A program made the translations under genes and the position numbers. From Naegleria gruberi (taxonomy: Eukaryota): a stretch of DNA of 64,000 nucleotides. Where the stretch lies: NCBI GenBank assembly GCA_000004985.1, contig GG738915.1; one strand, given 5' to 3'. A model generated the notes under the pieces. That model worked only from the letters and a program-made list of their open reading frames with translations, was not told where the DNA came from and ran no database searches. Positions within the stretch are counted from its first letter, which is position 1; each line of letters begins with the position of its first letter. Shown here in pieces: positions 2,784-24,030 of the stretch.

Positions 2784-5069
2784 CTAATTAATGGTATTAC
2801 TTTGAATTGTGTAAGCAATTTTCCAATTTTTAAATTCTCTCGTTGAGGCAAGTCTTAGAAAAGTATCTGATAAATTAGCATAGATTGGGGGATGAATAAT
2901 CTCAACCAATTGTCGAACTTTGGTTTTCTTATTGGAATTATTCGAAATGTTGTCATTTAAGGATTTTTCACATTCGTTCAGTAATTCGTAGAAATTTCTC
3001 CTCACAGTTGATTGAATATTAACTTCGAAAATCGATTGACTTCTCATATATTTACATTCCAAATCTCTCAAATCGTCAATTTCTAAAGATTTATCAATTC
3101 CCTTTTTTGAAATTATTTTTTGTAAATCCATATTTAGCAAGTAGTTTTCAATAGACATTTCTTTAGAAGCATATTCTTTTAGAAGAATTTGAAATTCTGA
3201 ATTTTTCAAATAATTTTCCAATTGATCAAACTGACTAGAATTTGTTTGAATATTAGAATCATTTCCATATTTGGCATTTCTAATAAATTGAATAAACTCG
3301 GAAACTAAAACAGTTCCACCACAAATAAACATGAAACAGACAAACACCAAAAACCTAAAAAATCGACTCATTTCTATAAAAAATTCACTCGTTCCAGATC
3401 CATAAAATATAATTACTAAAATGGTATTCACAATTAAAAATACCAAAAGTAGCAAATCAATTCTAACAAGAAAAGGATCATCAAATAGGAGAAATCTTCT
3501 CAATCCCTTTTCCTTAATAATTTTCCTATTCACAATCATATCAAATACAATAGCTCCAAATCCCAACAAACAACCCAACACACAATACAAGACAATTGTT
3601 GCATTTCCCACAAGTAGATAGGTAAATTCAGCATCGTACAAATCAGTAAAGAAGAATGTCACTCCATGTATCGAAAATATCAAAGCAATCACAAGAGGAA
3701 TTGCCATTGTAAATAACAATCCATATTTCCATTCAGAGAATTTTCTCATTCTATGAATTACCTTATCACTATTCATTCCTTCAGCTTTTGTAATCAAAGT
3801 GTACAAATTTCTCAAATAGTAATAACGTACAACTGTCAAGCTATAGTTCATGACAATGAAACAGACCACAATCATTGAGAAATATCTCAGAAAATAGTAA
3901 CATGCATTATTCATAAAGGTGGAGAAACAAATTTCCAATGGAACGATGAATATTGGAAGGTAGGGAGTGAGTAATCTTCTGGTGAGTGATCGTTTTCTGA
4001 ATGCTTGACTGGCAAATAAGCAGAGAAAGTAACCTATTTCTATGATGGAACATGGAATGAGCCAATAATCTCCATTCGCGAAGGCAAAATCAACACATTG
4101 AGTCGTGACACATTTATGACATGTGGAAGGTAGAAAATTATTCAATAATTCCAGTAGAGTTTCGTTTGAGTTGTTACTATGTGTTGGTATTGAAATATTG
4201 TAAACTTTCAATGTATTCTTTACAATTTCGTCTAAAATCCAATATTGTGGTTTTTGTAAAGTAATTCCACTCACAAAATTAATGAAATTCAAATCAGAAT
4301 TTGACAAATTTCCAAACAGTTTCAATCTGGCCATCACGTTATTCATATCTTTATCTATATATGATGAACAATGTATTGTAAACTCATTGGAATTCGTGGA
4401 ATTGATAGTGGAATAATTATTGAGTGTGAAAAATCCATTCAATTGGTTCAAATTTTGCAAATCACTTAATTGGGTTAATTCTGATTGGGAAATGACGTTC
4501 AAAATTGATGGAACTAGAGGAAGAGGAATAAAATCAGATGGATTAATCAGAACGAAACTATCCGAATCTCTGTATAACCTCAAATAATCATAGAAATATT
4601 GTAATGTAGAAAATAAAACATCGTATTGCAAGAGAACGTTTTTAGGATTTCGACACGCATCTCCTGAAAATGTAAAATAATGAACTTTCAGATTTAAATT
4701 ATGAAACGAAACGAAACTCTGAAACTCTGAATAAAGTCTTTTTTCTACACCAATAGTAAGACGAGAGGATTCTTCCTTCAAAAATTCCACCATTGATTCG
4801 GTAGATTTCACCAGTGAATCGTCCAATTGATTAGTTTGGAATATTTTCCTCCAGACGAAAGCTGTCAAATAATCATTTACACTCACAATTGACTGCGACC
4901 GATCCACATAATAAATAGATTGTTGGGTTAGTGAAATATGTTTAGTAGTATCGAGAATAATTGTTTCCGATAACACGAATTTTGTTATTAAAATTAAAGT
5001 AAACGAAAGCAGAAGAAATAAATGATGAGAATTTCGTATACTTGATGTTGGTGAGTTCGTGACGTGCAT
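2784..5069 (-). CDS. Seven-transmembrane receptor with a C-terminal RGS domain (7TM-RGS, fungal GprK-like); N-terminal signal peptide and a large Cys-containing ectodomain
   Basis: 761-aa ORF. It begins with a hydrophobic signal-like N-terminus (HLFLLLSFTLILITKFVLS) and has about 7 hydrophobic helices in the middle. The C-terminal ~130 aa align to the RGS fold (SEFQILLKEYASKEMSIENYLLNMDLQKI ... YMRSQSIFEVNIQSTVRRNFYELLNE ... IHPPIYANLSDTFLRLASTREFKNW). Confidence 0.6.
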   Translation of the reverse strand: MHVTNSPTSSIRNSHHLFLLLSFTLILITKFVLSETIILDTTKHISLTQQSIYYVDRSQSIVSVNDYLTAFVWRKIFQTNQLDDSLVKSTESMVEFLKEESSRLTIGVEKRLYSEFQSFVSFHNLNLKVHYFTFSGDACRNPKNVLLQYDVLFSTLQYFYDYLRLYRDSDSFVLINPSDFIPLPLVPSILNVISQSELTQLSDLQNLNQLNGFFTLNNYSTINSTNSNEFTIHCSSYIDKDMNNVMARLKLFGNLSNSDLNFINFVSGITLQKPQYWILDEIVKNTLKVYNISIPTHSNNSNETLLELLNNFLPSTCHKCVTTQCVDFAFANGDYWLIPCSIIEIGYFLCLFASQAFRKRSLTRRLLTPYLPIFIVPLEICFSTFMNNACYYFLRYFSMIVVCFIVMNYSLTVVRYYYLRNLYTLITKAEGMNSDKVIHRMRKFSEWKYGLLFTMAIPLVIALIFSIHGVTFFFTDLYDAEFTYLLVGNATIVLYCVLGCLLGFGAIVFDMIVNRKIIKEKGLRRFLLFDDPFLVRIDLLLLVFLIVNTILVIIFYGSGTSEFFIEMSRFFRFLVFVCFMFICGGTVLVSEFIQFIRNAKYGNDSNIQTNSSQFDQLENYLKNSEFQILLKEYASKEMSIENYLLNMDLQKIISKKGIDKSLEIDDLRDLECKYMRSQSIFEVNIQSTVRRNFYELLNECEKSLNDNISNNSNKKTKVRQLVEIIHPPIYANLSDTFLRLASTREFKNWKIAYTIQSNTIN

Positions 5070-5482
5070 TTTTTTCTGTTGTGAAGTTTGTTATCCAAAT
5101 GTCAGAAATTTAGACAGTTAAGGGCCTTAAAGATTTCCAAATTTTGACAATTACCATTTTTGAAGTTTGTTTTGAAAAAAGAAAAAAACAACAGCAAGAA
5201 AATATATTGAATGCACCAATGTGTGAATATTGAAATAATTTATCATTGGAAAGATGTGAACGGTTTCGAATAAACTTTACAATAATTTTTTTCTATTTTT
5301 TCATTAATTTCTTCAGAAAAATTCAATAGTGTGGTGTTGAAATATTGCAATTGTAAAGAGACCAATGCTATTAATAATAATTTACTTGAATTGTTTAAAA
5401 TCTATTTGAAAATTGTTAAGATTTCGGTAAATGACCAAATATAGAAAATCCATAAAAGAAATTTTCCAAAAATTACAAAAAT
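5070..5482. promoter_or_regulatory. Putative bidirectional promoter region between the divergent 7TM-RGS and transketolase genes
   Basis: A 413-bp AT-rich spacer between two divergently transcribed ORFs, with an A-rich tract immediately upstream of ATG 5483. Called from position only; no specific motif was identified. Confidence 0.2.
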
Positions 5483-8400
5483 TTGAATAAAAAAAATATG
5501 AAAAAATCAAACCAATCCATAGAATTGAGTTTATTCCATCCAAACTCTCTTTCTCATGAGAATCGAGTCCAAATTTCTCATGCACTTCGAAATATTTCTC
5601 CAAATATAGTAATTGGACAAAATGAAGGTGAATTTGATTGTTACACAGATGAAATTCTTCTCTCATCTGAATTACCAGATGTGTTTAGTGTAGATTCCAT
5701 GTTTCTTCCTCATCTAATCGATAGAGGACTCATTCAGCCAATTCAAAAAGATTATTTGAATTCTCTTTGTAATCCTGACGAAATGTTTGAGTTTACAAAA
5801 CAATCCTGTCAATTTAATGGCGACTGGTATGGAATACCAATGTTTGTCCATGGATACATTGTCATGCAACGTGAATTTGATAAGGAAATCAAGTCACTTC
5901 AAGCACTTGCTGAAAAACATGGTTATGACTCAATTGTTTTTCCAGATATGGCAGCTTCTAGCTCCATGTTAATAGTCAGATCGTTTGCTTTGGATCAACA
6001 GGGTGCTACTAATTCCAATAGAATTCAAATCACTAGAGAAAACTTTCCACTTTCAAAGATGGACGAAATTTCACCTTCCTATTTGAAGAATTTCAGAACT
6101 GTGCAAAATGCGACCAAGATTGTGAGTGCACAAGAGTTGGTGGATACATGTAGGTTGGGAGAATGCATTCCACATGCTGCCTACGTTGGAAGATTGGAAA
6201 ATGTTTGTGGACTCAAGTCAAAATTCGAGCAGGGAAATTGGACTTTGACAGTTCTTCCTTTTTTGGAAGGTAAGGCAATGACTACGACTGTTAGTGTGTT
6301 GGTATTCAATGCTAATTTGAAAGGAGAGAGATTGAAACAAGCAATGGAATATCTGAAAGGTTTTTTCACTTTGGAAAAAGTGGACGAAATGTTGGAACAT
6401 GGTTTAATGATACCTTGCGATAAATCCAGATTGAGAAGATGGTCTGAAAAGAGTACCATCTATAGAGATGTTCTCTACTCTCTAGAAAATGTAGAAAAAA
6501 AGATTATTAACATTTCATTACATCCAGATTTGGACAATCGAGAAATTGTCAAAATGTCAAATATTCTCAAACCTCATTTACAACACATTGCTGTAGGTAC
6601 ACTTCGTTGCTTAACTGCAGACATGGTAGAGAAAGCCAAAAGTGGACATCCTGGCATGCCAATCGGAATGTCAACCATCGCTTTCGTATTATGGAAATAT
6701 TTCTACAGAGCTTCAGGTAAAGATCCAACATGGATCAATCGAGATCGATTCATACTCAGTAATGGACATGGTTGTGCACTTCAATATGCATTACTTCATT
6801 TAACAGGATATGAATCCATGCCCATGGAACAGTTACAGAAATTAAGAACTTTGGATTCGAATACTCCTGGTCATCCCGAATGGTTCCATACAGATGGAGT
6901 GGATGCTACGACAGGTCCACTTGGACAGGGTATGTGCAATTCTATTGGAATGGCAGTCGCTGAATGTCACTTGTCCAAGAGATTTAACAGAAATGAGTTG
7001 AAATTATTTGATCATTACACGTATGTCTTTTGTGGAGATGGTGATTTGATGGAAGGCATGTCCACAGAGGGTATGTCATTTGCAGGACATCAACAACTCA
7101 ACAAAGTCATTGTTTTTTATGATGACAATAGAATTACCATAGATGGAAGTACGGATCTAACATTCACTCAGGACACAGCCATGGTTGCAAGAGGATTGGG
7201 TTGGCATGTCATTGAAGTTCATGATGCCGACTCTAACTTGCTAAGAATCAAGGAAGCAATCGAAACAGCTCGTCTTGTAACCAACAAACCATCCATGATT
7301 ATATGCAAGACAACCATTGGTTATGGAACTAAACAGGAAGGAACTGCCAAAGCTCATGGAACAGCATTGGGTGAGGATTCTGTTAGAATGTTGAAGAAAT
7401 TCTGTGGATTTAATCCAGACGATCATTTTATTATTCCTTCCATTGTGAGGGAAGAATTTGAAAAGATTTCTGATAGAAATGCCAAATATTTGCAAGAATG
7501 GAATGATATGACACAAAAATATGCAAATTCACACAAATCTGAATGGGAAATGTTGATGAGAATGAGAAGGGGTGAAATAGAGGACTCTCTCGAGAAGTTT
7601 CTTCCAAAATTTGAAGATGAAAAGTCAATGGCCACTAGAATGTGTTCACACGAAGTGTTAAATGGAATATTCAAGATTATTCCAGCAATGGTTGGAGGAT
7701 CAGCTGATTTAACACCATCCAATTTGACAGATATTGAAGGACAGAAGGATTTTCAACCTCATTCCAGAGAGGGAAGATATTTCAGGTTTGGAGTTAGAGA
7801 ACATGGAATGTGCTCCATTTCGAATGGAATTCTCTATCATGGACTGTTGAGAACCTATGTAGGGACTTTCCTTAATTTTGCTTCGTATGGATTGGGAGCT
7901 ATTCGTTTGAGTGCACTAGCTCAATTGCCAAATATTTTTGTGTTGACACATGACAGTATTGGCTTGGGAGAAGATGGACCAACTCATCAACCTATTGAAG
8001 TATTAACAGCTCTGAGAGCTATTCCTAACATGAATGTGATTAGACCAGCAGATGGTAGAGAAACAAGTGGTGCCTATCTATCAGCCATCAAAACTCTCAA
8101 AACTCCAACATGTCTAGCTCTGTCAAGACAAAACGTTCCACCAATCAAGAATTCCAGTATCGAAAAGACACTCAAAGGAGCCTATATCTTGGAGCAAGAT
8201 GAAAACCCTGATGTTATTTTAGTGGCCACAGGCTCAGAAGTTCAACTCATTGTTGAAGCCAAGAAACAATTGAACGAAAGACAAATTAATGTAAGAACTA
8301 TCAGTATGCCAAGTTGGGAACTCTTTGATGCACAGCCACTGGAATATAGACAGGAAATATTCACAGCTGGCATTCCATGTCTGTCAGTTGAAGCTGCTTC

Positions 8401-8602
8401 TATCATTGGATGGAGTAAATACAGTCATCACCAAATTGGAATGCTTAATTTTGGAGCTAGTGGAAAGTATACAGATGTCTATGAAAAGAATCAGATTACA
8501 ACAAGAAATGTTGTTGAATCTTCTATCAAGTTAATCGATAGATATAAGAAATCAGCTCCAAGTTTAATTCTTGCTCCATTGAAGGAAGAAAAAGCGTTAT
8601 AA
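5483..8602 (+). CDS. Transketolase with an in-frame N-terminal ~365-aa MalE-like (bacterial solute-binding protein family 1-like) domain
   Basis: The C-terminal ~670 aa is unmistakably transketolase ([41 protein letters not shown], pyrimidine- and C-terminal domain motifs). The N-terminal part shares several colinear blocks with E. coli MalE ([22 protein letters not shown] vs [75 protein letters not shown] vs [53 protein letters not shown]). An internal Met ([11 protein letters not shown], around 6578) lies exactly where canonical transketolases start. Confidence 0.8.
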   Translation: [1039 protein letters not shown]

Positions 8603-21699: not shown

Positions 21700-21845
21700 C
21701 TTCCGAGGTGAAAATTTTTGATGTTCGTAGATTTTCAAATACAAATGTGCTCGTCTCGTGGTGTAATGGTAGCATAGTGGACTTTGAATCCATTGACGGA
21801 GGTTCGATTCCTCCCGAGACGGTAAACGTGGCGAGCCATAAGAAT
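21700..21845 (+). repeat. Left arm of an inverted segmental duplication carrying tRNA-Gln plus ~50 nt 5' and ~22 nt 3' flank
   Basis: The flanks tgatgttcgtagattttcaaatacaaatgtgctcg and ggtaaacgtggcgagccataa recur reverse-complemented at 23878..24030. Confidence 0.7.
21752..21822 (+). tRNA. tRNA-Gln (anticodon TTG)
   Basis: Cloverleaf readable by eye: acceptor CGTCTCG/CGAGACG, D-arm GGTGTAATGGTAGCA, anticodon loop CTTTGAA, T-arm GGAGGTTCGATTCCTCC, discriminator G. No encoded CCA. Confidence 0.85.
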
Positions 21846-23704: not shown

Positions 23705-23775
23705 TGCGTCGACCGGGAATTGAACCCGGGTCACGGCGATGGCAACGCCGTATTCTACCACTAAACCATCGACGC
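23705..23775 (-). tRNA. tRNA-Gly (anticodon GCC)
   Basis: The reverse complement reads GCGTCGATGGTTTAGTGGTAGAATACGGCGTTGCCATCGCCGTGACCCGGGTTCAATTCCCGGTCGACGCA: acceptor GCGTCGA/TCGACGC, anticodon stem CGGCG/CGCCG with loop TTGCCAT, T-loop GGTTCAATTCC. Confidence 0.85.
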
Positions 23776-23877: not shown

Positions 23878-24030
23878 TTGTTATGGCTCGCCACGTTTAC
23901 CGTCTCGGGAGGAATCGAACCTCCGTCAATGGATTCAAAGTCCACTATGCTACCATTACACCACGAGACGAGCACATTAACTGTTCAAAATCTTCGAATA
24001 TCATTGATTTTCAATGATAATCTTAGAAAA
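23878..24030 (-). repeat. Right arm of the inverted tRNA-Gln duplication
   Basis: ttatggctcgccacgtttacc ... cacgagacgagcacattaactgttcaaaatcttcgaatatca is the reverse complement of the 21700..21845 region with a few substitutions. Confidence 0.7.
23900..23970 (-). tRNA. tRNA-Gln (anticodon TTG), inverted duplicate of the copy at 21752..21822
   Basis: Exact reverse complement of the + strand tRNA-Gln, including shared flanks (ggtaaacgtggcgagccataa and the upstream aatgtgctcg). Confidence 0.85.

Follow-up and report, generated by a model that had tools for sequence, protein, structure and literature searches.

Does the transketolase (TK) gene NAEGRDRAFT_60965 of Naegleria gruberi encode a transketolase only, or does the reading frame that extends upstream of its annotated start belong to the same protein, and what would then be the additional domain? 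This question is raised by a window of 64,000 nucleotides (contig GG738915.1, assembly GCA_000004985.1), in which a single uninterrupted open reading frame (ORF) occupies positions 5483..8602 of the plus strand and counts 1039 codons from a TTG. A preliminary description, made from the sequence alone, had proposed that a MalE-like domain of the bacterial solute-binding proteins (SBPs) of family 1 (SBP_bac_1) is fused in frame to the N-terminus of the TK and could sense sugars. The present analysis indicates that 5498-8602 most probably encodes a single cytosolic protein of 1034 residues, in which a relative of thiaminase I that has lost its catalytic residues (a pseudo-thiaminase) is fused to a TK, and that this gene is copy B of a fused gene that underwent duplication.

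Extent of the coding sequence

The first ATG of the ORF is located at 5498 and the closest in-frame stop upstream at 5453. The full coding sequence of this type-B thiaminase-I-like::transketolase fusion (types A and B are defined below), delimited by the open ORF and by the alignment of orthologs, extends over 5498..8602 on the plus strand and encodes 1034 amino acids (aa) plus a stop without intron; neither an intron nor a stop separates the two parts of the protein. The public N. gruberi model (EFC37674.1 / XP_002670418.1 / D2VZK8, 682 aa) is an exact match to the ORF from an internal Met (MSNILKPH...) at 6554, and leaves out the N-terminal third of the ORF (352 residues, 5498-6553), hereafter called the N-domain. 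The two ORFs next to the gene are likewise identical to GenBank proteins of N. gruberi strain NEG-M. The preliminary description rightly pointed to this extension but counted about 365 codons ahead of the internal Met, whereas there are 352 (357 from the TTG).

Coding statistics, together with the orthologs and the structural model presented below, show that this in-frame extension of a complete TK is a genuine domain, as previously claimed. None of 20000 shuffles of 5498-6553 was free of stops, and the two other frames of this region contain 22 and 29 stops. Codon-usage log-odds in frame 0 reach 0.32 bits/codon in 5498-6553 versus 0.30 in the TK part, and are negative in every frame of the flanking intergenic DNA. 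The GC content is 36% in 5498-6553 versus 23% in the intergenic segment 5070-5497. The latter (5070..5497, not assigned to a strand) separates the upstream gene on the minus strand (2784-5069) from the ATG at 5498; its low GC content, its negative coding log-odds in all frames and the in-frame stop at 5453 characterize it as an AT-rich intergenic region and putative divergent promoter.

The TK module (6554..8599, plus strand, 682 aa) is the part identical to the public records. It scores 808.9 bits with TIGR00232 (cut-off 682.25), matches three Pfam TK domains (PF00456, PF02779 and PF22613, i.e. Transketolase_N, Transket_pyr and Transketolase_C_1) and keeps all the cofactor and catalytic motifs that were checked, such as SGHPG, the GDG...N motif for thiamin diphosphate (ThDP) and metal, SRQ, and the catalytic His, Arg, Ser, Glu and Asp. 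The roles of these residues are those assigned in the E. coli and yeast enzymes. The TK half appears complete and is presumably an active enzyme, for which ThDP is the cofactor. Direct reading of its C-terminus (...EEKAL) revealed no peroxisomal targeting signal of type 1 (PTS1).

Family and fold of the N-terminal domain

The N-domain (residues 1-352, 5498..6553, plus strand), unannotated in the public model, was assigned to the thiaminase I fold and predicted to be catalytically inactive on the basis of its Pfam match, its relationship with the structure 4hcw, an AlphaFold2 (AF2) model submitted to Foldseek, and its ratio of nonsynonymous to synonymous substitutions (dN/dS). The Pfam scan assigns it to Thiaminase_I-like_N (PF22156, 3.4e-12, 47 bits for a cut-off of 27). 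Its best sequence match in the Protein Data Bank (PDB) is the thiaminase I of N. gruberi itself (4hcw/4hcy, E 6e-39, residues 13-349), whose structure is reported to be that of Kreinbring et al. 2014 (PNAS 111:137; cited through PMC9839694). With the single sequence as query, the next matches are bacterial thiaminases I, 4kys (3.9e-6) and 2thi (7e-5), as well as 3thi and 4thi. A profile of the Naegleria N-domain family gave E-values of 2e-151 for 4hcw, 2e-53 for 4kys and 6e-45 for 2thi; it spans the bacterial thiaminases I from end to end, whereas the sugar binders (1eu8, MalE1, trehalose/maltose-binding proteins) are only marginal matches. The AF2 model of the N-domain has a mean predicted local distance difference test (pLDDT) of 81 and a predicted template modelling score (pTM) of 0.83. 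Foldseek ranks 4hcw first (TM 0.84), followed by the bacterial thiaminases 4kys/3thi (TM 0.71-0.73) and, below the thiaminases, by structures containing maltose-binding protein (MBP) and other SBPs (TM 0.57-0.67, E ~1e-14).

Does the N-domain nevertheless belong to the MalE family, as initially proposed? It matched neither SBP_bac_1 nor SBP_bac_8 in the Pfam scan, SBP_bac_6 remained below threshold (12.6 bits versus 24.6), and MalE was absent from the PDB phmmer list even at E <= 10. The alignment block by block with E. coli MalE that had been described was reproduced by BLASTP for two blocks, residues 247-334 with MalE 241-326 (26% identity, pairwise E 0.002) and residues 94-133 with MalE 87-141 (E 0.22); these alignments are weak, but the type-II periplasmic-binding-protein (PBP) fold was rightly recognized. 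Thiaminase I is said, in work attributed to Campobasso et al. in 1998, to have the type-II PBP fold, as MalE does, and this common fold accounts for the two weak MalE-like blocks. These correspond to a NG..Y.(I)P strand and to the hinge strand with the next helix. Unlike MalE, the N-domain has no family-level sequence match, no signal peptide and no ABC-transporter context, the neighbouring genes being unrelated. Its N-terminus is hydrophilic and, on direct reading, devoid of the hydrophobic core of a signal peptide; this agrees with the earlier remark that no signal peptide is obvious and fits an intracellular role.

That a MalE-like family-1 domain senses sugars and thereby regulates an enzyme of the pentose-phosphate pathway appears highly improbable. 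The common type-II PBP fold (TM ~0.6 with MBP), the two weak MalE blocks and remote matches to sugar SBPs (P0005, E 2e-7; P0006, E 2e-4; Lin1841; 1eu8) would be expected from such a sensor. However, all the strong matches are thiaminases I, by at least 30 orders of magnitude in E-value, the SBP_bac_1 and SBP_bac_8 models of Pfam are not matched, the domain derives by duplication from a proven thiaminase I, and its likeness to sugar binders is limited to the generic core of the fold. The sugar-sensing role thus finds no support here; the logical link between the two modules is thiamin, whose diphosphate is the cofactor of TK. Sequence and fold comparisons both point to the N-domain being a paralog of N. 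gruberi thiaminase I and not a member of the MalE / SBP_bac_1 family. The equivalog model TIGR04541 (thiamine pyridinylase BcmE) does not reach its cut-off (29.3 bits versus 175). For reasons given below, the domain should probably be labelled as a 'thiaminase-I-like (pseudo-enzyme) domain', neither as a thiaminase I nor as an SBP_bac_1 protein. The thiaminase module may plausibly have been acquired horizontally, since this family is otherwise bacterial.

The bacterial thiaminases I (Paenibacillus thiaminolyticus 2thi/3thi/4thi; Clostridium botulinum BcmE 4kys) are homologous to the N-domain over its whole length (TM ~0.72) and share with it the equivalents of Tyr50, Asp64 and Glu241. They are secreted, stand-alone and active enzymes with Cys113 and Asp272. 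In contrast, the type-B domain would be intracellular, is fused to a TK and lacks the equivalents of both Cys113 and Asp272.

Relatives, junction and history of the fusion

An exhaustive HMMER search with the N-domain revealed a protein of Naegleria fowleri with the same architecture (P0004, CAG4713849.1, 1020 aa), and the full-length query retrieved six further fused proteins (P0014, P0015, P0017, P0010, P0016 and P0018). PF22156 and the TK domains are found together in each of P0014, P0015, P0017, P0004, P0010 and P0016. Two of these proteins, P0014 (N. fowleri FDP41_009844, 1067 aa) and P0015 (Naegleria lovaniensis C9374_010042, 1039 aa), are orthologs that share 59% identity with the product of our gene over 99-100% of the length; their genes are single uninterrupted ORFs whose start is equivalent to the ATG at 5498. 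N. gruberi encodes a second fusion, P0017 (1025 aa, labelled only 'transketolase'), which is 48% identical to the product of the gene studied here. The other fused members come from N. lovaniensis (P0010), from an environmental sequence (P0016) and from a Logan assembly (P0018, 1064 aa). Residues 16-345 of 4hcw are an exact substring of P0017 (residues 15-344); therefore, the eukaryotic thiaminase I that has been crystallised is the N-terminal domain of a TK fusion.

A word-indexed protein search gave no match for the N-domain of either type, although at least seven relatives are present in the collection. This result reflects a miss of the search and not an absence, because the full-length and exhaustive HMMER searches found these relatives. 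A metagenome scan with the profile of the type-B N-domain yielded 261 pattern matches and no relative.

A neighbour-joining (NJ) tree was built with the TK domains of the eight fused proteins and seven outgroups. All eight fused TKs form one clade (bootstrap 100), in which clade A (P0017, P0004, P0010 and P0016; type A) and clade B (this gene, P0014 and P0015; type B) are each supported by a bootstrap of 100, P0018 being sister to both. Therefore, these clades indicate one fusion event followed by a duplication of the fused gene before the divergence of the Naegleria species. No unfused Naegleria TK was found among the best 120 matches. Comparison of the neighbours of the gene in the window with those of the N. 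fowleri and N. lovaniensis loci showed that only the fusion gene itself matches. The neighbouring genes are thus not syntenic; orthology therefore rests on the tree and on the identities.

Type A and type B have the same two-module architecture and fold within one species (TM 0.84 between 4hcw and the N-domain model), their TKs are 59% identical, and they descend from one common ancestral fusion. Their N-domains share only 27-30% identity. The type-B proteins of N. gruberi and N. fowleri have N-domains that are 45% identical and TKs that are 68% identical, and the identity of the N-domain to that of the N. lovaniensis ortholog is likewise 45%. Between N. fowleri and N. lovaniensis, type B shows a dN/dS of 0.11 in the N-domain and of 0.07 in the TK, i.e. 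the type-B N-domain is under purifying selection.

The two modules are joined by a predicted helix (residues 347-360, 6536..6577, plus strand) leading from the thiaminase-like domain to the TK, as seen in the AF2 model of the full-length protein (pLDDT 81 and pTM 0.80 overall, pLDDT 80-88 over the junction). Met353, with which the public model begins, lies in the middle of this helix. The AF2 model shows no flexible linker, and the two modules are predicted to pack against each other in a defined way. Among the fusions, the junction aligns residue for residue without spacer, and the position of Met353 is occupied by I, V, C or T in orthologs and paralogs, never by Met. Therefore, the N-domain must be translated with the TK in these proteins, and the Met of N. 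gruberi would be incidental. The public 682-aa model thus appears to be truncated at this internal Met, and NAEGRDRAFT_60965 would require a correction that restores one third of its protein.

If the public annotation were right, TK would begin at Met 6554 and the 352 upstream codons would be an untranslated leader or the decaying remnant of a thiaminase gene. EFC37674.1 has indeed 682 aa, its Met is located at the canonical start of TKs and the N-domain no longer has its catalytic residues (see below). Such a leader or remnant is nevertheless very unlikely: no shuffle preserves an open frame and the codon-usage score matches that of the TK part, the N-domain retains 45% identity with orthologs between which its dN/dS is 0.11, no ortholog or paralog has the junction Met, a helix runs through the junction in a confident AF2 model, and a leader of 1.5 kb would not be typical of a gene that has an AT-rich spacer of 428 bp ahead of it.

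An assembly or sequencing artefact, in which adjacent thiaminase-like and TK genes had been joined by a lost stop or a collapsed spacer, is scarcely credible. The type-A paralog is split into models of 393 and 599 aa in one N. fowleri annotation, as such an error might suggest. However, the architecture is continuous in independent assemblies of three Naegleria species and for both paralogs, it recurs in an environmental contig as well as in an organism of higher GC content, and the junction has no spacer in any of the aligned fusions. The split itself concerns FDP41_007799 / FDP41_007798 (P0008/P0009), which depart from the 1020-aa CAG4713849.1 within residues 369-422; a frameshift in that assembly, or an erroneous gene call, is the probable cause.

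Other observations concern the individual relatives. P0014 and P0015, annotated as 'hypothetical protein / transketolase', resemble the product of our gene in their lost catalytic residues, their pattern of type-B invariant Cys and their single-exon ORFs; they differ from it by a Gln at the nucleophile position, by a ThDP motif that begins with SDG instead of the canonical GDG kept by N. gruberi type B, and by the lack of a junction Met. Furthermore, P0014 (L001 6001-9204) carries a low-complexity poly-Thr/Gly insert (TSTTTTTTTTGGGGSGEKGD...) at residues ~175-200 of its N-domain, in a loop, that is not present in N. lovaniensis or N. gruberi. The deeper-branching fusion P0018 (SRR25336392 contig, L004 4382-7576) has a GC content of 47.5%, richer than that of Naegleria. 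Its called start is not an ATG, and its real start is probably the ATG at 4535 (MSCNRT...).

Active-site positions of the thiaminase-like domain

Residues were mapped by HMMER alignment to 2thi, in which the chain index equals the literature numbering, and by MAFFT. His118 (5849..5851, plus strand) stands here where thiaminases I carry their catalytic Cys nucleophile (Cys113 in B. thiaminolyticus, Cys143 in C. botulinum and Cys118 in type A of N. gruberi); the nucleophile is thus lost. In this column, both orthologs have a Gln, the four type-A sequences all have the Cys, and P0018 has an Ala, with both Asp positions kept. Two positions of presumed catalytic importance have lost their Asp on the same strand: Ser266 (6293..6295) aligns with B. 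thiaminolyticus Asp272 (type-A Asp262, motif YxD), and Gly276 (6323..6325) aligns with N. gruberi type-A Asp272 (motif LCDEK). In P. thiaminolyticus numbering, Tyr270 and Tyr222 are replaced in type B by Thr and Leu, respectively, and Tyr18 is removed by a deletion of two residues. Other positions, also on the plus strand, are retained: Tyr49 (5642..5644), equivalent to B. thiaminolyticus Tyr50 (FDCY motif) and invariant in 9/9 aligned sequences; Asp66 (5693..5695), equivalent to Asp64 in the PDVFxxD motif and located in an invariant column; and Glu234 (6197..6199), equivalent to Glu241 of the GYSE motif (GRLE here), next to which the equivalent of Tyr239 is an Arg. Compared with type A, this type-B copy therefore has His for Cys118, Ser for Asp262, Gly for Asp272 and Arg for the Tyr of GYSE, a two-residue deletion in FPYLP, gained invariant cysteines and a faster evolution of both domains.

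Conservation is distributed accordingly along the domain. In the type-B trio, blocks 101-140 (containing the former nucleophile) and 261-280 (containing the Asp) have an invariant fraction of 0.30-0.40 versus 0.65-0.75 in a type-A trio, and the most conserved type-B blocks are 41-80 (equivalents of Tyr50 and Asp64) and 221-240, with 0.65-0.70 invariant. Cysteines 104, 218, 223, 237 and 307 are invariant in the three type-B proteins and, except for 237, missing in type A. Two of them form a CxxxxC pair (CRLGEC) that immediately precedes GRLE, and IPCD is found in place of the type-A LPAN. Since the nucleophile position is a His in one species and a Gln in two, it cannot hold a conserved nucleophile, which leads us to consider the domain as a pseudo-thiaminase; thiamin cleavage has, we infer, been lost in type B.

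Could the N-domain still be an active thiaminase I like that of type A, giving a bifunctional thiaminase/transketolase? Its homology is clear and its fold is that of 4hcw, the equivalents of Tyr50, Asp64 and Glu241 are retained, and the type-B invariant Cys 104, 218, 223 and 307 could in principle provide a relocated nucleophile. However, the residue that replaces the nucleophile Cys (His or Gln) varies even within type B and therefore cannot be catalytic, the Asp equivalents are Ser and Gly, the equivalents of Tyr18, Tyr222, Tyr239 and Tyr270 are lost, the TIGR04541 score is 29 bits for a cut-off of 175, and the catalytic blocks are relaxed relative to type A. Activity of this kind is therefore unlikely.

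Several points weigh against the interpretation of this locus as a single pseudo-thiaminase fused to a TK. Public annotation begins at Met 6554, exact look-ups of the 1034-aa product and of three shorter Met starts found neither a record nor any transcript- or Logan-derived support for N. gruberi, and a TK-only isoform starting at the internal Met may exist. Furthermore, the equivalent of Glu241 is kept in type B, one of the type-B invariant Cys (104, 218, 223 or 307) might act as a substitute nucleophile, and the N. gruberi 'Asp272' base of Kreinbring et al. 2014 may be either of two residues. For this base, both candidate positions were compared; since both are non-acidic in type B, the conclusion is independent of which one is meant.

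Possible roles of the N-terminal domain

In the scenario that we favour, the fusion would have arisen once, in a heterolobosean ancestor, and the fused gene would have been duplicated before the split of the Naegleria species. Copy A would have stayed an active thiaminase I (the crystallised enzyme), whereas copy B, i.e. the gene studied here, would have lost catalysis, its N-domain being kept for a non-catalytic role. This domain could then be a binder of thiamin, of its pyrimidine moiety or of a related ligand, or a structural or regulatory partner packed on the TK.

As preferred mechanism, we tentatively suggest that the N-domain binds thiamin, its pyrimidine moiety or ThDP for capture, delivery or regulation of the cofactor. 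This binding is preferred because the Tyr50/Asp64 stretch is retained and especially conserved; in the bacterial enzyme, this stretch lines the active-site cleft, where it would be in contact with the pyrimidine ring. An exclusively structural function has about the same likelihood, since every Naegleria TK has the domain and the modelled junction is rigid. A Cys nucleophile at a new position or a redox switch is conceivable, but these are less probable than the binding and structural roles.

A wider proposal, which we regard as rather doubtful, is that the dead N-domain is a sensor or chaperone for thiamin, ThDP or the pyrimidine moiety, built into the TK, which would load or withhold the cofactor or gate the TK allosterically, or that it has acquired a new chemistry or a redox switch through Cys 104, 218, 223 or 307. 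If this were true, it would be the first example in which the fold of a vitamin-degrading enzyme has become a regulatory module within an enzyme requiring the same vitamin. Such a domain is present in every Naegleria TK seen, including that of the pathogen N. fowleri. In this pathogen, the N-domain is a lineage-specific addition to an essential enzyme of the pentose-phosphate pathway; the human enzyme lacks this domain, which could perhaps be exploited.

The sole structurally characterised eukaryotic thiaminase I is thus one half of a TK fusion, and the second fused copy is apparently dead yet conserved. The two copies would provide a natural active/inactive pair for asking why a fold that destroys thiamin is joined to an enzyme that uses ThDP. 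What thiaminase I does physiologically is still considered a mystery (PMC5627462).

The architecture is not new, since it can already be seen in the public records of N. fowleri and N. lovaniensis and of type A in N. gruberi: the paralogous N. gruberi fusion (1025 aa) and the N. fowleri and N. lovaniensis orthologs are annotated at full length with both Pfam domains. The literature search found no paper on a thiaminase-transketolase fusion or on these locus tags, Kreinbring et al. 2014, which might mention the fusion, being outside the searched texts. New here would be a corrected gene model for N. gruberi, together with the finding of a conserved paralog that appears catalytically dead.

Other features of the window

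The Rfam scan of the window revealed no thiamin pyrophosphate (TPP) riboswitch, its only gathering-level matches being three tRNAs. The corresponding genes are located within 2.2 kb at 21751-21823 (plus strand), 23705-23775 (minus strand) and 23899-23971 (minus strand), and form a cluster in which a tRNA-Gly(GCC) is flanked by two oppositely oriented copies of tRNA-Gln(UUG).

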